This document shows positions 24,908 through 33,280 of a stretch of 51,190 nt of DNA, piece by piece; the stretch's first letter is position 1; each line of letters opens with the position of its first letter. The position numbers were made by a program, and so were the translations under genes. Source of the stretch: Planctomycetota bacterium. Its GTDB lineage: Bacteria; Planctomycetota; SZUA-567. Where the stretch lies: positions 1 to 51,190 of the forward strand of contig DAIPJX010000001.1 of assembly GCA_036770065.1 (NCBI GenBank). Direction: 5' to 3'. The notes under the pieces were generated by a model. The model did no database searches. It was not told the origin of the DNA and worked only from the letters and a program-made list of their open reading frames with translations.

Positions 24908-24984
24908 GATCACGTAGCGCAATTGGTTAGAGCACCAGACTGTCGATCTGGAGGTTGCGGGTTCGAGTCCCGTCGTGATCGCCA
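24908..24984 (+). tRNA. tRNA-Asp (anticodon GTC), copy 1
   Basis: Cloverleaf folded by hand. Acceptor GATCACG/CGTGATC, anticodon loop CTGTCGA, T-arm GCGGG-TTCGAGT-CCCGT, encoded CCA. Confidence 0.9.
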
Positions 24985-25064: not shown

Positions 25065-25141
25065 GATCGCGTAGCGCAATTGGTTAGAGCACCAGACTGT
25101 CGATCTGGAGGTTGCGGGTTCGAGTCCCGTCGCGATCGCCA
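25065..25141 (+). tRNA. tRNA-Asp (anticodon GTC), copy 2
   Basis: Identical to copy 1 except for a compensatory acceptor-stem pair (GATCGCG/CGCGATC). Confidence 0.9.
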
Positions 25142-25244: not shown

Positions 25245-26723
25245 TTACCAATCAATTTGTTGTCTCTTCTTGTGCCTGTTCCAGAGCGGCAGGCCAATGG
25301 AAACAACGATGAGCGCGGCGAAGAGCCACGTGATGGGCGTTGCGAGAAATGTGCTGTAACTGCCGCGTGACATGAGGAGTGCGCGGCGGAAATGGCTCTC
25401 CGCCATGGGTCCGAGGATAAGGCCCAGAACGGCGGGGGAAGAGGATATTTCCACCTTATTCAGAAAGTAGCCGATAATCCCGAAGATGAGCATGGTCCAG
25501 ACATCGAAAAAATTATTGGCCATTGCATACGATCCGATTACGCAAAACAAGAAAATTGCCGGAATTAACACCGATTTCGGAATGGACAGGACTTTCGTGA
25601 AGATGCGGATGCAGGACAGGCCCATAACGCACATGACGATATTGGCGACGAACAGGCCGAGAAAGACGCTGTTGACCAATGTCGCGTGATTGCGGAACAA
25701 CAGCGGCCCCGGCTGCAATCCCTGGATGGTCAAGGCGCCTATCATGATTGCGGCAACCGCGTCTCCGGGGACGCCCAGAGTCAGCATCGGGATCATCGCA
25801 CCGCCGGTGACACCGTTGTTGGACGATTCGGGCGCCATGATTCCCTCCGGAATGCCGGTGCCGAATTTTTCCGGATGTTTGGAAAGGTTGCGCGCCTGTC
25901 CATAGGCAACAAAGGCGCCGATATCTGCTCCCGCTCCGGGAATAATTCCGATGAGCGTTCCGATAAGGCCGTAGAACGGTCCGTTTTTCAAAATCAGTTT
26001 CATGTCCGATTTCGTCGGAAGAACGCTATTGATTTTTTTGCTGACCATTCCCTTGACGTAAATCGTTTCAATGCTTTCAAACGCCTGCGACATGGCGAAG
26101 AGGCCGATCATGACCGGGATGTAGTTGATGCCGGAGAGAAGGTTGATGTTGTCATAGGTGAATCGTTTGTAACTGGTGATTCCGTCTATGCCGACTGTGG
26201 CGAGCAATATGCCCAACGCTCCGCAGAGGACGCCCTTGGCCAGACTGTTTCCGCTGATGCTGGCGATGACGCACAAGCCAAAGACGGCCAGCATGAAGAA
26301 TTCGGGCGAACTGAATTTCAGGGCGATTTTGGCGAGTTGCGGCGAGAGCAGCGTCAGGACAATGCAACTGACGATGCCGCCGACGAACGAGGACACGGTG
26401 GAGATGCCCAGCGCCCGTCCGGCTTCGCCGCGCTTGGCGAACTCGTATCCGTCGAGTACGGTTGCCGCCGCCGCCGGCGTTCCCGGCGTCCGGATGAGGA
26501 TGGCCGCGACCGAGCCGCCGTAAATCGCCCCCACATAGACGCCCAAGAGCATGAGGATTCCCGGCGCCGCTTCCATGCCGAAGGTGAGCGGGAGGACGAG
26601 CGCCACCCCCATGGTCGCAGTCAAGCCAGGCAGGCAGCCGATCGCCATTCCAGCCGCGACGCCGATGATAATGTAGAGGAGGGTGAGCGGTTCAAAGACT
26701 GTTTGGAGAACTTCCGCCGTCAT
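25245..26723 (-). CDS. tctA: Tripartite tricarboxylate transporter permease TctA
   Basis: 492-aa polytopic membrane protein. The N-terminus ...IGCLPGLTATMGVALVLPLTF is typical of TctA. Confidence 0.9.
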   Translation of the reverse strand: MTAEVLQTVFEPLTLLYIIIGVAAGMAIGCLPGLTATMGVALVLPLTFGMEAAPGILMLLGVYVGAIYGGSVAAILIRTPGTPAAAATVLDGYEFAKRGEAGRALGISTVSSFVGGIVSCIVLTLLSPQLAKIALKFSSPEFFMLAVFGLCVIASISGNSLAKGVLCGALGILLATVGIDGITSYKRFTYDNINLLSGINYIPVMIGLFAMSQAFESIETIYVKGMVSKKINSVLPTKSDMKLILKNGPFYGLIGTLIGIIPGAGADIGAFVAYGQARNLSKHPEKFGTGIPEGIMAPESSNNGVTGGAMIPMLTLGVPGDAVAAIMIGALTIQGLQPGPLLFRNHATLVNSVFLGLFVANIVMCVMGLSCIRIFTKVLSIPKSVLIPAIFLFCVIGSYAMANNFFDVWTMLIFGIIGYFLNKVEISSSPAVLGLILGPMAESHFRRALLMSRGSYSTFLATPITWLFAALIVVSIGLPLWNRHKKRQQIDW

Positions 26724-27200: not shown

Positions 27201-27274
27201 AAAACTTTCCTTGCAACCAAAGCATCCCGAGACGTTCGCTCGCCCCGGGATGCATGGGAATATTTTTATTATTT

Positions 27275-28231
27275 CTATTGATCCAGTCCGAGTTCGCTGA
27301 TCAGTTCCTTGAACATGAGATTGTCATTGGCCAGTCGTTCGGCGTATTGTTTGCTGTCGAGTATTTCTATGTCGTTTTTGCTGTCGGCCATGAACTTGAC
27401 GAATTTGGGCGAGTTTGCGCCGTCGATAAAGGTTTTTTCCAGCCAGGCGGTGATTTCGGCGGGAGTGTTCTTGGGTACGCCGAATCCGCGCCAGGTGCCG
27501 ATTGCGACGTCGTATCCGAGTTCTTTTCCTGTCGGGATATCGGGGGCGGAGGCGAGGCGGTGGGGTGCGAGAACGGCCAGCGCGCGGAGTTCGCCCGCTT
27601 CGATTTGGGACACGACTTCGGCGTAGCTGACCGCGACCGCGTCGATGTGTCCGCCCAAGAGCGAGGTCATGGCGGGAGCGGCGCCGTCGAAGGGGATGTG
27701 TATGAATTCGACGCCGGCCGCTTTGCCGAGGCCGGCCGCTGCCAGGTGCCAAATTGCGCCGATGCCGGAATTGCCGATTTGGAGCGGCCGTTCCTTGGCG
27801 TCCGCGATCAGGTCGTTCAACGACTGGTAAGGGGAGTCGGCGTGGACGGTGATGGCTGAGTAGGCGGAGTTGACCATCATGATCGGGCTGAAATTTTCAT
27901 AGCTGATGTCTCCGCCCGTACCGGTATGGGGGAGGGTGACGAGTTCGACGGTTGTCATGGTGATGATGTTTCCGTCGGGTTTGGCGTGTTGTCCGTAGGA
28001 CATGCCGACCGAGCCGCCGCCGCCGAGTCGGTTTTCGACCGCGATGCCTCGCGGGAATGAGTCTTTGATCGAATCGACGAGCGCGCGCCCGACCAGATCG
28101 GTTCCGCCGCCCGCGCCGTAGGGAACGATGACGGAGACGGGTGAATTGGGGTAGTCGATAGCCTCGGCTTGCGACACGGCGAGCGCGAAACCGAGCATAA
28201 GGGCAAATGCGATGAGACCGATTTTTTTCAT
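27275..28231 (-). CDS. tctC: Tripartite tricarboxylate transporter substrate-binding protein (TctC/Bug family)
   Basis: Signal peptide MKKIGLIAFALMLGFALAVSQAEA, then YPNSPVSVIVPYGAGGGTDLVGRAL. The start is at an internal Met preceded by GGAGAG. Confidence 0.85.
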   Translation of the reverse strand: MKKIGLIAFALMLGFALAVSQAEAIDYPNSPVSVIVPYGAGGGTDLVGRALVDSIKDSFPRGIAVENRLGGGGSVGMSYGQHAKPDGNIITMTTVELVTLPHTGTGGDISYENFSPIMMVNSAYSAITVHADSPYQSLNDLIADAKERPLQIGNSGIGAIWHLAAAGLGKAAGVEFIHIPFDGAAPAMTSLLGGHIDAVAVSYAEVVSQIEAGELRALAVLAPHRLASAPDIPTGKELGYDVAIGTWRGFGVPKNTPAEITAWLEKTFIDGANSPKFVKFMADSKNDIEILDSKQYAERLANDNLMFKELISELGLDQ

Positions 28232-28327
28232 GATGCCTCTCCTTGCAAAAGAAAAACCAGAAAATAGCGCAATTACCTTGGGTACGATATGCGTACAACA
28301 ATTTCCCCGATGCGTTAATGATGTGCG

Positions 28328-28356
28328 AATATATGTGAAGCTTTTATTTTGCGCAA
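28328..28356 (-). promoter_or_regulatory. Candidate sigma70 promoter for tctCBA
   Basis: On the minus strand: TTGCGC, 17-nt spacer, TATATT. Confidence 0.45.
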
Positions 28357-28373
28357 GGTATTTATTCCGTCTT

Positions 28374-28417
28374 AAAAAAAACGCCAACGACCGCTGTTTC
28401 GACAGCGAACGTTGGCG
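28374..28417 (-). terminator. Rho-independent terminator after DAHP synthase
   Basis: On the minus strand: CGCCAACG...CGTTGGCG with inner stem CGCTGT/ACAGCG, followed by T8. Confidence 0.7.
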
Positions 28418-28443: not shown

Positions 28444-29823
28444 TCAGAATCTTCCGGACGTTTTGTGCGGTGGGGGCGGCGGGGCTGTTTTGACCATGTG
28501 TTCGGAAAAGGCGAAAGCGAGTTCAAGCGACTGGGACGCGTTCAATCGCGGATCGCATTGGGTGTCGTAGTTGCAGGACAGATCTTCCACCCGGTCGGAG
28601 CCGCCCAGGCACTCGGTCACGTTTTTCCCGGTCATTTCCAAATGGATTCCGCCTGGATGCACGGATTCTTCACGACATACGTCGACGAAAATTTTGGCTT
28701 CGTTCAGGATGTCCGTGAACATGCGTGTTTTGACGCCGTTTTCGTCATTTTTCGGATTGCCGTGCATTGGGTCGACCATCCACAGGATTTCGCGTCCGGT
28801 GTGTTTCAGTCCCCGAATCAAATTGGTATAGACATCGGTCGCTTTTTCCACGCCGGCGCGGAGGATGAGGGTGATTTTGCCTTTTTCGTTGGACGGGTTC
28901 AGGCGTTCGATCAGGCGTTCGATATCGCCCGCGTTCGCGCCCGGTCCGCATTTAATGCCGACGGGATTGATAACGCCGCGCAGAAATTCCACCTGCGGGC
29001 TGTCGATACCCCGGGTTCGTTCACCAAGCCACAAAAAATGCGCGGAAGTCGCGACCGGATCGCCCGTCAGGCTGTCGTTTCTCGCGAGCGCTTCCTCGTA
29101 CGGCAGAAACAGCGCTTCGTGCGAAGCGTAGTAGTCCACTTTTTGGGCGGACGGCATCATTTCCGGCGCTTCGGGTTGTGCGTATGCGCGCATGACGCCG
29201 AGGGTTTTGTTGATGTTGTGGACGAGCGATTCGTATTTTACCCGCACCGCCGACGTGCCGACGAAGTCGAGGAGCCAGCGTCCCGCGCGGAACAGGTCGG
29301 CGTAGCCGCCGCTGGCAAAGGCGCGGAGGAGGTTCAATGTGGCGGCGGACTGGAAGTAGGCGCGAATCATTCGCTCGGGGTCGGGCTTTCTTGCGTCGGC
29401 TGTCGCTTCGAACCCATTGATCATGTCGCCGCGATAGGTTAAGATGGGCTGGCCGTCGACTGTTTCCGTCGTCGAACTGCGCGGTTTCGAAAATTGTCCC
29501 GCGACCCGCCCGATTTTCACCACCGGTTTTTCGCCGACAAAGGTGATGATAAGCGCCATTTGCAGCAGGACGCGGAAGGTGTCGCGGATGTTTTGTGTAT
29601 TGAAATCGGCGAATGTTTCTGCACAATCGCCGCCTTGGAGGACAAACCCCTGGCCTTGCGCCGATTCGGCGAGCGAGCTTTTGAGTTGCCGCACTTCGCC
29701 CGCGAACACCAGCGGCGGATAGGTCTTCAAGTGTTCCTCGGCATCGCGCAGCGCTGCCATGTCGGGGTATTCGGGAATGTGCAACAACGGTTTTGAACGC
29801 CAACTGCCTCGTGACCAGGACAT
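28444..29823 (-). CDS. Class II 3-deoxy-7-phosphoheptulonate (DAHP) synthase
   Basis: WSRGSWRSKPLLHIPEYPD...PPLVFAGEVRQL...GFVLQGGDCAETF, the class II (plant/Mtb-type) signature. AGGAGA lies 5 nt upstream of the ATG. Confidence 0.9.
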   Translation of the reverse strand: MSWSRGSWRSKPLLHIPEYPDMAALRDAEEHLKTYPPLVFAGEVRQLKSSLAESAQGQGFVLQGGDCAETFADFNTQNIRDTFRVLLQMALIITFVGEKPVVKIGRVAGQFSKPRSSTTETVDGQPILTYRGDMINGFEATADARKPDPERMIRAYFQSAATLNLLRAFASGGYADLFRAGRWLLDFVGTSAVRVKYESLVHNINKTLGVMRAYAQPEAPEMMPSAQKVDYYASHEALFLPYEEALARNDSLTGDPVATSAHFLWLGERTRGIDSPQVEFLRGVINPVGIKCGPGANAGDIERLIERLNPSNEKGKITLILRAGVEKATDVYTNLIRGLKHTGREILWMVDPMHGNPKNDENGVKTRMFTDILNEAKIFVDVCREESVHPGGIHLEMTGKNVTECLGGSDRVEDLSCNYDTQCDPRLNASQSLELAFAFSEHMVKTAPPPPPHKTSGRF

Positions 29824-29834
29824 TGTATTCTCCT

Positions 29835-31142
29835 ATGAAATTACTCCATATTAAACCACTCGCAAAGCGGCTTGACTGTACTCTGAGCGTCCCCGGCTCC
29901 AAAAGCCTTTCCAACCGAGCCCTTCTTCTCGCCGCAGTGGCGGAGGGGGAATCGATTCTTGACCATATTCCCGATTCGGACGATATCCAGGCCGCGCTTT
30001 CCGCGCTTCGCGGTTTGGGCGTTCCGGTTTTGAATCCGTCCGCCGGGCGGTATGTCGTGCATGGGCACGGCCTTGCGTTTCCCGTGCGGTCCGGCGAATT
30101 GGATATTCGTTCGTCCGGCACTGTCGGTCGCTTCCTGACCGGGCTTCTCGCCGCCGCGCCGGCCGGAAGCTGGCGAGTTGCGGCGACCGATCAGCTTGCC
30201 CGTCGTCCCATTGGTCCTCTTCTGGACGCATTGGGCGCGTGGGGCGCCGACATCCGGCGGGAGAACGCCGAGCGCTCGTTTCCGCTGTTGGTGAACGGGA
30301 CCGGGTTGTCCGGCGGGGCCGTGGCCATTTCCGCAGCAAAGTCGAGCCAATTCGCCAGCGGCATTCTGCTGGCGGCGCCGCTTTCGTCCCGTCCGTCGGT
30401 CGTTGCCATTACGGACATCGATCCGGAAGAATGCTATATCGATCTCACGCTTGACCTGATGCATTCGTTCGGCGTCCGGACCGAAACGGAAAAAGCGCCC
30501 GGAACGCAAACCGTGTTCATCAATCCGCAGCCGTACCGCGCGTGTTCCCTGGTGATGGAGGCCGATTTCAACAGCGCCAATTATTTCCTCGCCCTTCCGC
30601 TTCTTGTCGGAGGCTGCGTGACGGTCGCGAATCTTTCCGCGCATTCGGGACAGCCGGGGGCGAAATTCATTTCGGTTCTGGAGCGCCTCGGCGGCATGAT
30701 CGAGAACGCGGGCGGCGGCGTTTCCGTTTCCGGAACGGGCGAGACGCTTCGCGGCGGTTTCACTCTCGATATGCGCGCCATGTCGGAGATGGCCCTGACG
30801 CTTGGCGTTCTCGCCGTGTTTGCCGACGGTCCCGTCACCATGACGAACATTGCGCATATTCGCGGCCACGAGACAGATCGCATTGATGCGCTCGTCAAAC
30901 AACTTGCCCGGCTCGGCGTTCACTGCGACGAGGGTTCGGATTGGGTAACTATTCATCCGTTGCCGCGTTCCAGCATAGCGTCCTGCGTTGTCGATTCGTG
31001 CGGCGATCACCGTATTGCCATGTCGCTTGCAATCCTCGGCCTTGCCGCGAACGGCCTGTCCATCACGAATCCCGACGCGGTCGGGAAAACTTTCCCCGGC
31101 TTTTTCGATTGCCTGTCCGTCGCCGGTGCGGTTGTTTCATGA
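29835..31142 (+). CDS. aroA: 3-phosphoshikimate 1-carboxyvinyltransferase (EPSP synthase)
   Basis: MKLLHIKPLAKRLDCTLSVPGSKSLSNRALLLAAVAEG..., ...DHRIAMSLAILGL. Confidence 0.9.
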   Translation: MKLLHIKPLAKRLDCTLSVPGSKSLSNRALLLAAVAEGESILDHIPDSDDIQAALSALRGLGVPVLNPSAGRYVVHGHGLAFPVRSGELDIRSSGTVGRFLTGLLAAAPAGSWRVAATDQLARRPIGPLLDALGAWGADIRRENAERSFPLLVNGTGLSGGAVAISAAKSSQFASGILLAAPLSSRPSVVAITDIDPEECYIDLTLDLMHSFGVRTETEKAPGTQTVFINPQPYRACSLVMEADFNSANYFLALPLLVGGCVTVANLSAHSGQPGAKFISVLERLGGMIENAGGGVSVSGTGETLRGGFTLDMRAMSEMALTLGVLAVFADGPVTMTNIAHIRGHETDRIDALVKQLARLGVHCDEGSDWVTIHPLPRSSIASCVVDSCGDHRIAMSLAILGLAANGLSITNPDAVGKTFPGFFDCLSVAGAVVS

Positions 31143-31928
31143 GGCGCAGGCGTTGGCGGTTTCCGTCCCGGTTTCTTCCAATTGATTTTCCAATTTCGTC
31201 AATTCATCGATAAGGCGCTTTCGTATGACGTTGGCGTGGGGATTGCCTTTTTCGATAGTCAGGAACAGATCCCACGAGTCCGACAGGACGATAGACGCGA
31301 ATTCCTGCAACTTTTCATACGCTCTGGTTGCCATTGGCGAGGGTTCCAGCCCGATTTCCCTGAGCGCCCGACTCATGAAATGCGTCATTGCCTGCACTTT
31401 CGCCATTTCCCGGTCGTGCGCGTCGGGGGTGGTTTTGAGGACGAGAAGCCGCAGTTCGTCGGTCAGAAAATCGCAAACTTTGTAGTAGCGTTCTTGCCCG
31501 ATGCGAACGGGACAGAGCGCAATGCGCAGGCTGGCAATGCCGTTTTTCCCGGACTGCGGCCCGAAAAGCGGGTGCGTTCCGAGCAGGTCGGCGTGTTCGG
31601 GAATATGTTGGGAGAGAATCGAGAGCGGAGTAACCTTGACCGAGGTCACATCGGCGACCAGCGCTCCCGGTTTAATGAAGGGGGCCGCTTCGACAACCGC
31701 CTGTTCGAGCGATGCGAGGGGAACGGCGAAGATGACGATATCGCATTGCGCCGTTTCGGCCAGGGTTCCGCGAACGATGGCGGAGGCGCCGTCCTGTTCC
31801 ATCACTTCATTTGTCGGGTAGTTGTTGTCATGTCCGAGCACATCGTAATACCGGGCCATGTATTTGGCGAGAAACCGTCCGAACGCTCCCAGCCCGATGC
31901 ACCCGAGTGACTTGCGTGCGGTTGACAT
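31137..31928 (-). CDS. tyrA: Prephenate/arogenate dehydrogenase
   Basis: GLGAFGRFLA nucleotide-binding motif, DVTSVK, GTHPLFGP. AAAGGAA lies upstream of the ATG. Confidence 0.85.
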   Translation of the reverse strand: MSTARKSLGCIGLGAFGRFLAKYMARYYDVLGHDNNYPTNEVMEQDGASAIVRGTLAETAQCDIVIFAVPLASLEQAVVEAAPFIKPGALVADVTSVKVTPLSILSQHIPEHADLLGTHPLFGPQSGKNGIASLRIALCPVRIGQERYYKVCDFLTDELRLLVLKTTPDAHDREMAKVQAMTHFMSRALREIGLEPSPMATRAYEKLQEFASIVLSDSWDLFLTIEKGNPHANVIRKRLIDELTKLENQLEETGTETANACAS

Positions 31929-31963
31929 GATCGTTCCTTTCAGTGTGTTTTCGTTTTTCGAAA

Positions 31964-31988
31964 CAAAAAAAACCGGCCTTTGGGCCGG
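31964..31988 (-). terminator. Intrinsic terminator between the leader ORF and tyrA (attenuator terminator)
   Basis: On the minus strand: CCGGCC-CAAA-GGCCGG followed by T9. It ends 36 nt before the tyrA ATG. Confidence 0.7.
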
Positions 31989-32018
31989 TCGGAAAGTGAA
32001 TCAGCTTATGTATTGTTT

Positions 32019-32096
32019 CTACATATCGCCGTCGCTTTTCCTCCCGGAAAAGAAGCTGAAATACCGACGGTAAAAGTAATACGATGAACGCTGCAT
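32019..32096 (-). CDS. Candidate Tyr/Phe-rich leader peptide (25 aa) of a tyrA attenuator
   Basis: MQRSSYYFYRRYFSFFSGRKSDGDM. Codons 6-16 contain 4 Tyr and 4 Phe. It sits between a candidate promoter and the terminator upstream of tyrA. Confidence 0.55.
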   Translation of the reverse strand: MQRSSYYFYRRYFSFFSGRKSDGDM

Positions 32097-32135
32097 TTTT
32101 TCTCGTCCTTTGCCAGCTTGGCGGCGAATATGAGA

Positions 32136-32163
32136 AGTGTATGGTGAATCCCGGCAAATGCAA
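32136..32163 (-). promoter_or_regulatory. Candidate sigma70 promoter for the leader-tyrA transcript
   Basis: On the minus strand: TTGCAT (32163-32158), 16-nt spacer, TACACT (32141-32136). A T-rich tract lies immediately upstream. Confidence 0.4.
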
Positions 32164-32165
32164 AC

Positions 32166-32203
32166 AAAAAAATGCGGCATGCCGCTTGGCTTCGGCATGC
32201 CGC
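32166..32203 (-). terminator. Strong orphan intrinsic terminator with no annotated gene upstream
   Basis: On the minus strand: GCGGCATGCCG-aagccaag-CGGCATGCCGC (perfect 11-bp stem), then A and T7. Confidence 0.75.
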
Positions 32204-32450
32204 CGCGCGTTGGGGTGGGGGAAAAGGAGATGGAGTTTGCCCACACGCGTACAACTAACAATTTAAACCACAATACGTTACATTGCCAAGCCCCCCCGCT
32301 TTTTCTTCTCTGTCTCTGTTTTTTACCTGTCGCGACGTTTGCCAATACCTCCGGGCGTGTTATGCGCGATGTGCGTTTCCGGGTGTAAACGGTGGGTGGT
32401 TGGACAGATAGCAAAAATTGATTTCGATGGATAACTAAAAGTATTAAAGT

Positions 32451-32478
32451 TTGCATCGATATATCCGTACAGTATAGT
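32451..32478 (+). promoter_or_regulatory. Candidate sigma70 promoter for the small charged-protein gene
   Basis: TTGCAT (32451-32456), 16-nt spacer, TATAGT (32473-32478). Confidence 0.5.
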
Positions 32479-32520
32479 ATAAGGGAGTGCGGCGCTGTAG
32501 TGCATGGATGGAGACCAGCG

Positions 32521-32850
32521 ATGAGTATTGGTGCAATTCAAGACAATTTGGTGAAAACGAGTCTTGTGCAGCAGACTCAATCGAAGGGCGACGATGTCCT
32601 GCGCGGTCAGGAGATCGGCCAGGTCGCATCGCAGAAGGAACATGACCGCCAGCAGGATCAGGTTGTATTGCAGCTTAGGCAAAAAGAGGAGCACGGCATT
32701 CGCCGTGACGAAGAGCGCGACAAGGAAGGCGAAAAAAAGCGTCGCCAGGACGAACAGGACGAAGGCGACAAGAAAAAACCCAAGGACGACGAGCCCGAGG
32801 AAGAGAGCGGCGCACGTGCCCGTATGCGAACGATTAATATCATCGTTTAG
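32521..32850 (+). CDS. Hypothetical small, highly charged (K/E/D/Q-rich) protein, 109 aa
   Basis: The ATG at 32521 follows GGAGA with 6-nt spacing. MSIGAIQDNLVKTSLVQQTQ..., then a long DEERDKEGEKKRRQDEQDEGDKKKPKDDEPEEE tract. Confidence 0.5.
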   Translation: MSIGAIQDNLVKTSLVQQTQSKGDDVLRGQEIGQVASQKEHDRQQDQVVLQLRQKEEHGIRRDEERDKEGEKKRRQDEQDEGDKKKPKDDEPEEESGARARMRTINIIV

Positions 32851-33280
32851 CTTCTATAAGCGAACGCAACCCCCCGTTTTCTATAAAGAGCGCAAGTTCC
32901 TCCATATTCTCCACAACCGCATCGGAGAGGTAGCGAATCACCCAGTTCAAGCGCAGTCCCGACACCGCCACAACAACGGCGCCGGCATGATGGGCGTTCC
33001 ACAGTTCGATAGCGGTTCCCATACTGGCTTCCGGCACGAATGCAATGAGCACGTCCGTTTTTCCCGCCCTGTCCATCAAGTCGAAAAAAGCCCCTGCCGC
33101 TTTTGCGTCATCGTATCCGATGCTGTCGGGGTATTCTTCCACCGGATCGAATATGGAAGAGCCGGGAAACGCGGCGGCCAGCATTTTTCCAATCCGTCGC
33201 CGATACTCTTGCGGGTGCGCGCTGTCGGGAAGCGACCCCTGTATGATGCCTGCGATAAAAAATTGTAAAGCCTTGGACAT
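32840..33280 (-). CDS. Nucleoside 2-deoxyribosyltransferase-like fold protein (tentative)
   Basis: FFIAGIIQGS...DVLIAFVPEASMGTAIELWNAHHAGAVVVAV resembles the NDT-like Rossmann pattern with a conserved Glu. Recognised from memory only. Confidence 0.5.
   Translation of the reverse strand: MSKALQFFIAGIIQGSLPDSAHPQEYRRRIGKMLAAAFPGSSIFDPVEEYPDSIGYDDAKAAGAFFDLMDRAGKTDVLIAFVPEASMGTAIELWNAHHAGAVVVAVSGLRLNWVIRYLSDAVVENMEELALFIENGGLRSLIEAKR

Follow-up and report, generated by a model that had tools for sequence, protein, structure and literature searches.

How is tyrA controlled in a gut planctomycete in which the gene follows a short, Tyr- and Phe-rich ORF and an intrinsic terminator? We addressed this question in the window, i.e., the whole stretch of 51,190 nucleotides that was analysed; all features described below lie on its minus strand. 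From sequence comparison and modelling, the element is likely a real ribosome-mediated (leader-peptide) transcription attenuator controlling tyrA, and tyrA would very probably be on only when aromatic amino acids run short.

Leader ORF, candidate promoter, terminator and tyrA

The leader ORF (32096->32019) comprises 25 codons plus TAG, with the ATG at 32096-32094 and the stop codon at 32021-32019, and is predicted to encode the peptide MQRSSYYFYRRYFSFFSGRKSDGDM. Codons 6-16 (32049..32081; Y Y F Y R R Y F S F F) form the putative regulatory block, in which four codons are Tyr (TAT/TAC) and four are Phe (TTT/TTC), giving 8/11 aromatic. A preliminary description had named this ORF with its codon run, and both were recovered at these positions. 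The purine tract which it had placed upstream of the ATG was also found (AAGGACGAG); inside it, a Shine-Dalgarno-like AAGGA (32106..32110) lies 10-14 nt before the start codon. The tyrA start is preceded by AAGGA as well, at a spacing similar to that of the leader.

Eight aromatic codons in eleven is the maximum across all six frames of the 51-kb window. Among shuffles of the window (n = 50), 8 in 11 was reached by 0/50 and 7 by 4/50. As four shuffles still reach 7, the run is rare, not overwhelming alone; the feature stands above chance because the whole module is conserved in 22 other loci. A 145-aa ORF in the same frame as the leader (32019..32456) is not conserved, and the frame of the relatives closes at most 45 codons upstream.

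A candidate sigma-70-type promoter is located at 32136..32163, where TTGCAT (32163-32158) and TACACT (32141-32136) are separated by 16 nt; this sequence, too, is present as first described. As its score is under the threshold of a simple consensus scan, we infer the promoter from conservation: in most relatives, a TTGC-N-T ... TATA-N-T pair precedes the leader at a comparable distance. The candidate comes directly after the strong terminator (32203-32174) of an upstream element.

The intrinsic terminator of the leader (regions 3:4, 31965..31990) reads GACCGGCC-CAAA-GGCCGGUU. Its core, CCGGCC-CAAA-GGCCGG (31988-31973), is the hairpin that had been proposed beforehand; the computed stem extends to 8 bp (31990-31971), with a folding energy of -14.1 to -14.7 kcal/mol. 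The U9 that was said to follow is really U8 (31972-31965), then G and UUU. The reported spacing of 36 nt from the U-run to the tyrA ATG (31928) was reproduced.

The putatively regulated gene, tyrA (31137..31928), encodes a predicted prephenate/arogenate dehydrogenase of 263 aa (Pfam PDH_N, 3.5e-16). NCBIfam prephenate dehydrogenase models also match the product, but below their own cut-offs; the TyrA homologues carry PF02153 and PF26213. In 22/23 loci, the distance from the terminator end to the tyrA ATG is 21-73 nt. A promoter of tyrA's own is, therefore, hardly possible in this gap, and expression must come by read-through. The gene order tyrA> <aroA DAHPS> is conserved, and tyrA is probably monocistronic as aroA converges on it. 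Where gaps between tyrA and aroA are present, they hold long GC-rich hairpins. We considered a co-regulation of the class II DAHP synthase via tyrA read-through across antisense aroA, which is unlikely given these hairpins. Such a co-regulation would have accounted for the mixed aromatic codons.

Alternative RNA helices and ribosome positions

Regions 1 and 2 both lie inside the leader ORF. Region 1 (32046..32070) is the 5' arm of the 1:2 hairpin and consists of CCGUCG (32070-32065) and CUUUUCC (32052-32046). Region 2 (32029..32047; CCGGGAGGAAAAGCGACGG) is the most conserved segment among the 23 leaders of the family. Its core, CCGGGAGGAAA, is a partner of either region 1 or region 3: GGAAAAG-CGACGG (32041-32029) pairs with the former, and CCGGGAGGAAAAG (32047-32035) with the latter. 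Region 3 (31985..31996) reads CUUUCCGACCGG, and its 3' CCGG belongs to the terminator 5' arm. Thus, CCGG is common to the 2:3 helix and the terminator arm, and GGAAAAG to the 2:3 and 1:2 helices, so that 2:3 is mutually exclusive with both the terminator and 1:2.

The 1:2 and 2:3 pairings had been drawn by hand in the preliminary description, and the computation yielded both, with 2:3 taking the CCGG of the terminator arm. The 1:2 hairpin (CUUUUCC/GGAAAAG and CCGUCG/CGACGG) is within the minimum-free-energy fold and has -14.8 kcal/mol in isolation; the 2:3 duplex of the window has -15.4 to -15.8 kcal/mol. A comparison of the two folded states, which had been suggested as a check, found 2:3 to be competitive. 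It is the minimum-energy fold before the terminator 3' arm exists, and in the full-length RNA, the values are -31.3 kcal/mol with 2:3 enforced and -37.8 kcal/mol for 1:2 + 3:4. Across the family, the 20 leaders with a correct anchor have 2:3 duplexes of -15 to -25 kcal/mol, and the values of -9.5 to -10.3 for L033, L034, and L036 are due to a mis-set anchor in that computation. The overall fold energy of the window leader is unremarkable for its composition (z = -1.64; 10/200 shuffles fold equally well).

For the effect of a ribosome, we used a footprint model in which the RNA of all 23 leaders was cut before the terminator 3' arm and the 2:3 pairs were counted. Two other measures were dropped. 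When the full-length leader is folded at equilibrium with a ribosome mask, the terminator wins almost everywhere, at any ribosome position; this says nothing on kinetics, and the truncated RNA was used in its place. Hence, the switch presupposes that a kinetic choice is made co-transcriptionally. Counting whether the terminator 5' arm is paired upstream was replaced by the region 2:region 3 counts, as CCGGCC always finds some partner.

With the A site at -15..-4, 8-11.5 expected 2:3 bp remain in the model, and with the A site at 0 to +6, about 0-1.7; this holds whether the 3' edge of the footprint is set at +9, +12, or +15. When the ribosome is at the stop codon, 4-5 of the 2:3 pairs return, and with no ribosome, 2:3 often equals 1:2 in quality (mean 7 bp). 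Hence, the repressed state would rely on timing. In the window leader, modelled stalls at codons 6-13 leave a 12-bp antiterminator, and those at codons 15-16 leave 8 and 5 bp. The Phe codons 15 and 16 are, therefore, predicted to be poor sensor positions, as they are too near region 2.

Conservation among Planctomycetota relatives

The module is found upstream of tyrA in 22 other loci of uncultured Planctomycetota, with TyrA 56-79% identical; the window and these loci make up the family set of 23 leaders. The contigs derive from hindguts of beetle larvae or termites. An alignment of related tyrA upstream regions had been recommended at the outset, and the mini-ORF, the aromatic run, and the terminator are indeed kept in these relatives. 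The conserved parts of the 23 leaders are the start codon, the open frame, the aromatic block, the hairpin phase, the stop distance, region 3, and the terminator; the N-terminal codons, the spacer, and the 5' UTR are not conserved. The ORFs of the relatives have 24-27 codons, and the start is ATG in 20 and GTG in 3 of the 23 leaders. A GGA-containing purine motif occurs at -17..-6 in 22/23 leaders, which is a weak criterion. The hairpin CYUUCC-GGNN-GGAAA stands in a fixed codon phase in 22/23, and the stop codon is 26 nt past the hairpin CCGG in 17/23. At the end of the otherwise unalignable, variable spacer, CUUUUCC-NN-CCGG is kept, overlapping the terminator 5' arm.

The aromatic block holds 2-5 Tyr, 1-5 Phe, and 0-1 Trp codons per leader, and the totals over the 23 leaders are 82 Tyr, 75 Phe, and 20 Trp. 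At the six stem-free positions, 71 of 138 codons are Tyr, 38 Phe, and 7 Trp. Relative to the Ser codon, positions -11..-8, -6..-4, and -2 are aromatic in 16-23 of the 23 leaders; position -9 is aromatic in all 23 via five different codons, and position -5 is Tyr in 20. To judge from these codons, the pattern looks like selection on the amino-acid class, and the predicted sensor of the family as a whole is Tyr > Phe, in most cases with one Trp codon added. A Tyr cluster is thus present (4 Tyr in the window), though amino acids other than the cognate one are also represented in it. Structure rather than sensing may account for the conservation of the Trp codon and of the last Phe, Leu, and Ser codons, as these sit in stems. 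A gene specific to Tyr would have no need of Phe and Trp codons, a point that counts against the attenuator.

Pairs were counted in a hand-anchored, N-padded alignment, which replaced a plain MAFFT alignment because MAFFT misaligns the two terminator types. In these counts, which lean towards the anchored structures, the terminator has 88% of cells paired, with 4 doubly changed pairs and covariation above all 500 shuffles; 2:3 in a fixed register has 75.6% paired versus at most 59% in slid controls, with modest covariation (reached by 1/500 shuffles); and 1:2 has 80.3% versus at most 63%, with covariation reached by 4/500 shuffles. Where lineages have their terminator arm shifted (CCCGGC) or their region 2 altered (GGAUG), pairing is kept: L008 pairs CCGGGAGG:CCUCCCGG, and L013 and L009 pair GGAUG:CAUC. 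When the 12-nt flank of region 3 was replaced, native 2:3 pairing exceeded the mean, with individually weak fractions of 0.0015-0.26 for random and 0.004-0.40 for shuffled flanks; L033, L034, and L036 were mis-anchored in this test. The support for 2:3 is mostly sequence conservation, with covariation being modest.

With a covariance model of the family, each locus yields a single copy, which in every case lies upstream of tyrA. The model also finds the leader of a locus outside the building set (L046; 63.9 bits, TyrA 84% identical), and it gave no further match in the window (51 kb) or the 256 kb that were searched. Upstream of tyrA, the leader is missing from Cytophagales loci and from planctomycete loci whose TyrA is 45-50% identical, and in L030 only a degenerate form is present. 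The leader is also absent in L011, L012, and L032, where aroB-tyrA is an operon. As tyrA lies directly behind aroB in these sister lineages without the leader, the leader occupies the position of the gene's control region.

Proposed mechanism, alternatives and meaning

The elements found are those of the attenuator class, namely a leader ORF with an RBS-like motif, a cognate codon cluster, an intrinsic terminator, an exclusive antiterminator, and, in the model, a suitable codon placement. The conservation in 22 loci and the competitive 2:3 fold support the trpL/pheL-type logic that was first suggested for this position before tyrA. In the proposed mechanism, transcription would begin at a promoter lying some 35 nt upstream of the leader ATG, with the 25-codon ORF as the first gene of the transcript. 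Codons 6-13 (Tyr, Tyr, Phe, Tyr, Arg, Arg, Tyr, Phe) would be the sensor. At low levels of charged tRNA-Tyr (probably also of tRNA-Phe, and of tRNA-Trp in relatives), the ribosome would stall over region 1 and leave region 2 (CCGGGAGGAAAAG) free. This would pair with region 3 (CUUUCCGACCGG) once the latter is transcribed, sequestering the terminator 5' arm and allowing read-through into tyrA. With charged tRNAs, the ribosome would proceed through region 2 to the stop codon, covering region 2, and 1:2 may re-form later. Region 3 would then pair with region 4, and the GC-rich hairpin with U8 would end the transcript at about 160 nt.

Four other explanations have to be weighed against this attenuator. 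It could report general translation capacity or ribosome traffic, e.g., in global starvation, with a U-rich, weakly structured segment giving rise to the aromatic codons as a by-product. For tyrA, a mix of three amino acids is indeed odd, the block is U-rich, and part of it (CGC UGG, UUC CUU UCC) is needed for the 1:2 stems. At the stem-free positions, however, 17-23 of the 23 leaders have an aromatic codon via an interchange of UUU, UUC, UAU, UAC, and UGG, while other U-rich codons (Leu, Ile, Ser, Cys) are rare. Tyr dominates there (71 versus 38 Phe), which fits the downstream gene, and the block is placed exactly where a stalled ribosome maximises 2:3 in the model. We, therefore, regard a general traffic sensor as quite unlikely. 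A TnaC/SecM-type arrest peptide, which would sense a free aromatic amino acid or another ligand in the tunnel and park the ribosome over region 2 or the stop codon to favour termination, could draw on a peptide that is fairly conserved along its whole length (F-Y-F-Y-R-W-Y-Y-G-F-L-S-G-R-K-R-D), on aromatic and basic residues typical of such peptides, and on the loss of 2:3 with a ribosome at 0..+6 in the model. But the C-terminal conservation is that of the RNA hairpin. It relaxes in the loop (GGG/GGA/GGU; AGG/CGG/GGG) and at +4 (R, S, G, L, A), so the constraint appears to be on the RNA rather than the peptide. Moreover, arrest peptides have fixed residues, whereas most positions here accept F, Y, or W freely. 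In the 23 leaders, the sensor residues are not invariant, and the terminator is intrinsic, with no Rho-type site. This makes an arrest peptide very improbable.

The alternative helices exist with or without translation of the ORF, and the ORF could be incidental to a switch that works independently of translation, e.g., a riboswitch or a leader that binds protein or tRNA. Yet the start codon, the frame of 24-27 codons, the hairpin phase (22/23), and the stop distance are kept while the N-terminus diverges completely, and the aromatic block has no conserved pairing partner. No Rfam riboswitch or T-box matches even at E <= 10, and the 5' UTR is not conserved; such a switch is still less probable than an arrest peptide. 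Aromatic-rich small proteins do exist, and the terminator is strong, as expected if the ORF were an independent small-protein gene with tyrA transcribed separately. Against this, the 21-73 nt to the tyrA ATG (22/23 loci) leave no promoter room, half of the peptide is dictated by a hairpin whose 3' arm complements the terminator flank, and in the sequence searched, the element is found only beside tyrA, so that we consider a separate gene the least likely of the four explanations.

The attenuator may also not stand alone but form one half of a module of two RNAs. Next to it lies a conserved element of about 85 nt (32260-32166) with the loop CUCCAUCUCCUUYUCCCCC, which contains the CUUUUCC heptamer as in region 1. 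As a small RNA, this element could pair with the purine-rich region 2 (GGGAGGAAAAG) and favour termination; and/or the released leader RNA (about 160 nt) or the aromatic peptide could act in trans, as rnTrpL and peTrpL do in Sinorhizobium. In both cases, the Tyr/Phe/Trp sensor would feed a wider aromatic regulon, in a phylum for which the coupling of transcription and translation has been questioned. In a window scan for pairing of the CU-rich upstream element with the leader, region 2 ranks only 413th of 34,110 targets (-17.7 kcal/mol). We hold this extension of the attenuator to be quite improbable.

Rfam gave no match at the gathering score in the window. In 31900-32900, Phe_leader, Trp_leader, His_leader, Leu_leader, and Thr_leader gave none at E <= 10, and the best match was an unrelated sRNA model (21.9 bits versus a gathering score of 49.5). 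A T-box match at E <= 10 was also absent there, and the leader has only about 130 nt with a conserved ORF. A literature search found no tyrA leader peptide and no planctomycete attenuator. E. coli pheL and Corynebacterium aroR are the nearest analogues.

In E. coli pheL-pheA (Rfam Phe_leader) and in pheM of pheST, an aromatic leader ORF is combined with 1:2/2:3/3:4 helices and an intrinsic terminator, and stalling at hungry codons favours the antiterminator (PMC11802643, PMC3082878). The planctomycete element likewise has a short aromatic-rich leader ORF, alternative helices, and an intrinsic terminator directly before an aromatic-pathway gene. It differs in its target, which is tyrA and not pheA or pheST, and in its codons, which are a Tyr > Phe (+ Trp) mix in place of a Phe run. 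Furthermore, regions 1 and 2 are inside the ORF, with the stop 26 nt past the hairpin loop, and the element belongs to Planctomycetota, not Gammaproteobacteria, and matches no Rfam leader family. The aroR leader upstream of aroF (DAHP synthase) in Corynebacterium glutamicum contains Phe-Tyr-Phe and acts by ribosome-mediated attenuation, according to the account of Neshat et al. (2014) given in PMC11802643; in the same account, only Phe limitation had an effect. Hence, codon content does not predict the effective signal. Mixed aromatic codons before an aromatic biosynthesis gene are common to both elements, a likeness drawn from the description of aroR. The target of aroR is the first common step, for which a multi-amino-acid signal is sensible, whereas the present target is a Tyr-specific branch enzyme; aroR has 3 aromatic codons and the present leaders 5-10, and the phylum is different.

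The four-region logic and the kinetic choice between antiterminator and terminator are shared with E. coli trpL-trpEDCBA. The energies are also comparable: in the planctomycete leader, as is established for trp, 1:2 and 2:3 have about the same stability, and overall the terminated state is the more stable one. In trpL, the stop codon is between regions 1 and 2, so that region 2 is masked by a ribosome at the stop; in the planctomycete leader, it is part of the ORF and would, in the model, be masked by a translating ribosome in transit, and the sensor amino acids differ. E. coli aroF-tyrA is under TyrR, a DNA-binding repressor that senses free amino acids. The attenuator resembles the TyrR regulon in tying tyrA expression to aromatic amino-acid supply, but it would be a cis-acting RNA/ribosome device that senses tRNA charging.

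For annotation, the gain is a small ORF together with a conditional terminator, both of which are missed by gene callers; the attenuator would also be a compact, portable part, testable in a heterologous host. As far as the literature search and Rfam show, a leader-peptide attenuator would here be described for the first time for tyrA, and likewise for any Planctomycetota gene, and it would add a new leader family of at least 23 members to the catalogue of cis-regulatory leaders. In the literature searched, it would be the second natural sensor with mixed aromatic codons after Corynebacterium aroR, and it lets one ask which hungry codon drives the switch. For Gemmata, another member of the phylum, it has been proposed that transcription and translation are spatially separated (see PMC5394234). 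Ribosome-mediated attenuation requires a ribosome close behind RNA polymerase, and the conserved attenuator would, therefore, be genetic evidence for transcription-translation coupling in a planctomycete lineage.

Anatomy of the leader and its alternative folds

The tyrA ORF (263 aa) is on the minus strand with its ATG at 31928. Upstream on the same strand are a candidate promoter, TTGCAT-16 nt-TACACT (32163–32158 and 32141–32136), the purine tract AAGGACGAG between this promoter and the leader ATG, and the leader ORF encoding MQRSSYYFYRRYFSFFSGRKSDGDM (ATG 32096, TAG 32021–32019). The leader stop is followed by a 22-nt spacer and by region 3 and the terminator, CUUUCCGACCGGCC-CAAA-GGCCGG-U8 (31996–31965), and tyrA starts 36 nt past the U8 run. 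All coordinates of the preliminary description are correct on inspection of the window sequence, except for the U-run, which has eight U's and not nine. A second strong terminator (32203–32174) sits immediately upstream of the promoter candidate, which argues for a transcription start of the leader's own.

Directly upstream of the leader promoter lies a further element, conserved and about 85 nt long (window 32166–32260, minus strand), preceded by a promoter-like TTGGCA-18-TAAATT (32289–32260, minus). Its first hairpin is ACGCGUGUGGG / CCCAC..CGCG with the CU-rich loop CAAACUCCAUCUCCUUYUCCCC. The second hairpin (11 bp, GCGGCAUGCCG-AAGCCAAG-CGGCAUGCCGC, then U7) shows compensatory changes from G-C to A-U in its stem. 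The element is near-identical in 11 loci, the distant loci L005 and L006 among them, has no Rfam match and may be a small RNA or a conserved 3' end. The CU-rich loop shares CUUUUCC with leader region 1; in a target scan of the window, leader region 2 ranked only 413th of 34,110 possible targets.

Region 2 of the leader, CCGGGAGGAAAAG-CGACGG (32047–32029), can pair in two ways. Pairing to region 1, CCGUCG...CUUUUCC (32070–32046), gives the 1:2 hairpin (−14.8 kcal/mol). Pairing to region 3, CUUUCCGACCGG (31996–31985), gives the 2:3 duplex (−15.4 to −15.8 kcal/mol), which occupies four to six bases at the start of the terminator 5' arm. Both pairings had been drawn by hand and hold at these energies. 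The terminator itself has −14.1 to −14.7 kcal/mol. For the full-length RNA, 1:2 plus terminator (3:4) reaches −37.8 kcal/mol versus −31.3 kcal/mol for the best fold with 2:3 enforced, and as long as the terminator 3' arm has not been transcribed, the fold of lowest energy is 2:3 (−27.7 kcal/mol). On these predicted energies, the choice between the two must be kinetic, as in classical attenuators. Equilibrium folding gave a dominant terminator at any ribosome position.

No other stretch in any of the six frames of the 51-kb window is as rich in aromatic codons as the run of the leader (8 of 11 codons); among 50 shuffles the highest count was 7, obtained in 4 of them. The fold energy of the leader is unexceptional (z = −1.64). 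From the window alone, the case against chance is only moderate; what carries it is the comparison with relatives. Elsewhere in the window, 7 aromatic codons in 11 occur just once, from 27246 onward on the plus strand, where ORFs overlap on both strands (27254–27859 plus; TctC-family gene 27275–28387 minus); this stretch probably lies antisense to a real gene.

Conservation among tyrA loci

The tyrA loci came from species-representative genomes, whose scan gave 24 loci (13 planctomycete), from a metagenome scan (18 loci) and from look-ups of the closest proteins. By its TyrA homologues, the window belongs to uncultured Planctomycetota, and 'PaHGM' hindgut-metagenome contigs carry an identical TyrA. 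The module precedes tyrA in 22 loci with TyrA identities to the window of 56–79%; in a 23rd relative, L046 (84% identical), the copy is cut by the contig end.

Among the 23 leaders (window plus 22 loci), the start codon is ATG in 20 and GTG in 3, and the open frame has 24–27 codons. The aromatic codon block is conserved, and so is the hairpin CYUUCC-GGNN-GGAAA(A/C)G, which is always translated as F-[LP]-S-G-R-K. The codon phase of its CCGG is identical in 22/23 leaders, and the stop codon lies 26 nt past it in 17/23 (19–29 nt in the rest). Also conserved is CUUUUCC-NN-CCGG, leading into a GC-rich terminator with U6–U9, beyond which tyrA starts after 21–73 nt (163 nt in one locus). The N-terminal leader codons, the 5' UTR and the 28–38-nt post-stop spacer are not conserved in the alignment of relatives. 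Judged from the sequences, a leader-peptide attenuator would be expected to show this split, whereas neither a small protein gene nor a riboswitch would.

A covariance model of the leader family, trained without L046, found one copy per locus, invariably before tyrA, recovered the partial L046 copy (63.9 bits) and gave no further copy in either the window or 256 kb of loci. L011, L012 and L032, which have the same gene cluster and branch off earliest, lack the module; in them, tyrA stands directly behind aroB in one operon. The module is likewise absent from planctomycete loci with TyrA 45–50% identical and from Cytophagales loci. One locus, L030 (about 60–400; TyrA 67% identical), has just a short degenerate aromatic ORF, MTYFMTRPYCRQ, upstream of tyrA, a different terminator (CCGGUCUG-UU-CAGGCCGG-U8) and a weak model match (17 bits, E = 0.33); this is possibly a decayed or remodelled attenuator. 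Between leader promoter and ATG, L001 (about 2770–2800), L002 and L044 have an additional GC hairpin and U-run, GGCCCGACCCGGGCCGG-AUUUUUU, and L025, L005 and L006 a comparable one, which the window does not have. This hairpin may act as a further terminator-like element or as a stabilising one.

Pair counts from A3, a hand-anchored, N-padded alignment of the leaders that was fitted to the tested structures, lean in their favour: 88% of cells were paired for the terminator (slid controls 53% or less), 80.3% for 1:2 (63% or less) and 75.6% for 2:3 in one fixed register (59% or less). In the same alignment, four terminator pairs changed on both sides, with covariation above all 500 shuffles; the covariation of 2:3 was matched by 1/500 and that of 1:2 by 4/500. 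Where the terminator arm has become CCCGGC or region 2 GGAUG, complementarity is kept in a new register (CCGGGAGG:CCUCCCGG in L008, GGAUG:CAUC in L013 and L009). Flank-randomisation tests of 2:3 were individually weak, and this helix is backed by conservation more than by covariation.

Modelled ribosome position and candidate sensor codons

The ribosome was modelled as an unpaired block that extends 15 nt to the 5' side and 12 nt to the 3' side of the first A-site base, and each leader was folded truncated ahead of the terminator 3' arm. For the window, 12 2:3 pairs are expected with the A site at codons 7–13, 8 at Phe15, 5 at Phe16 and 0 from Ser17 to the stop. Codon positions in the family were numbered from the Ser codon holding the hairpin's first CC. 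The mean of the 23 leaders is 8–11.5 pairs for A sites from −15 to −4, declines over −3 to −1, stays at about 0–1.7 from 0 to +6 and is back up to 4–5 at the stop codon; moving the 3' edge to +9 or +15 left the profile nearly unchanged. The aromatic block is thus predicted to end where stalling ceases to be productive. In ribosome-free leaders, 2:3 formed on average as well as 1:2 (7 expected pairs), so the folds do not clearly predict the behaviour of classical attenuators, in which absence of translation means termination.

The 23 leaders contain 82 Tyr, 75 Phe and 20 Trp codons (window leader: 4, 4 and 0). Positions −11 to −8, −6 to −4 and −2 are aromatic in 16–23 of the 23, with −9 aromatic in all through five different codons and −5 Tyr in 20. 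CGC-UGG (Arg-Trp) and UUC-CUU-UCC (Phe-Leu-Ser) are in the lower and upper 1:2 stems; hence, their conservation may be structural. The six positions without predicted pairing (−11 to −8, −5, −4) hold 71 Tyr, 38 Phe and 7 Trp. As Tyr exceeds Phe there, the device is interpreted as sensing mainly Tyr, with a considerable contribution from Phe, codon content being no proof of the amino acid sensed. In the Corynebacterium aroR leader (Phe-Tyr-Phe), the effect came from Phe limitation only (PMC11802643).

Target gene and probable mechanism

In the 263-aa ORF, the nucleotide-binding domain of prephenate dehydrogenase is recognised (PF02153, 3.5e-16), and homologues of the window TyrA also have the arogenate-dehydrogenase C-terminal domain PF26213; the predicted product is a prephenate or arogenate dehydrogenase. 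The aroA gene (EPSP synthase; 29793–31142, plus; TIGR01356, 365 bits) converges on tyrA with an overlap of 6 nt (31137–31142). A class II DAHP synthase gene (29823–28444, minus) starts back-to-back with aroA, the two starts lying within about 30 nt (29793/29823), and the promoter of each must therefore be inside the other gene. Because of this arrangement, the leader most probably targets tyrA alone.

The gene sandwich tyrA> <aroA DAHPS> (28444–31928) is unusual and is conserved in all planctomycete loci that are long enough, leader-less ones included. Where a tyrA-aroA gap is present, it carries long GC-rich inverted repeats (12–30 bp) with no U-runs. Tripartite tricarboxylate transporter genes (TctA 25245–26723, TctC 27275–28387, minus) lie directly downstream of the DAHP synthase gene. 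At gathering score, Rfam recognises nothing in the whole window except two tRNA genes on the plus strand (24908–24981 and 25065–25138, 84 nt apart).

Taken on its sequence, the leader very likely acts by trpL/pheL-type ribosome-mediated attenuation of tyrA. A short upstream ORF could instead sense translational traffic with no amino-acid specificity, which is unlikely; a ligand-sensing arrest peptide is quite improbable, a translation-independent RNA switch more so, and an unrelated small-protein gene the least probable of the four. What speaks against each of them is the codon-level pattern of conservation, the looser conservation of the peptide precisely where the RNA loop lies, the constancy of reading frame and stop distance, and too little space for tyrA to have its own promoter.

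In the Rfam search, the sequence belonged to no leader family and no T-box family, and the literature searched described neither a leader peptide for tyrA nor an attenuator from planctomycetes. The one relevant remark in a survey is that Planctomycetes often have short upstream ORFs (PMC4833913).

For the attenuation reading, the systems nearest in function are E. coli pheL-pheA, which shares the aromatic codons and a branch-specific enzyme target, and C. glutamicum aroR-aroF, which shares mixed aromatic codons. The leader differs from both in phylum (Planctomycetota), in codon mix (Tyr > Phe + Trp) and in its target, tyrA, which in E. coli is controlled via the TyrR repressor. Unlike in these systems, regions 1 and 2 are both inside the ORF, and therefore the ribosome would mask region 2 in transit, not from the stop codon.

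The leader family is clean, conserved and not annotated before, and it would be a natural multi-amino-acid sensor that is directly testable with reporters. It would also imply tight translation-transcription coupling in a phylum in which separation of the two processes has been proposed for Gemmata (PMC5394234).
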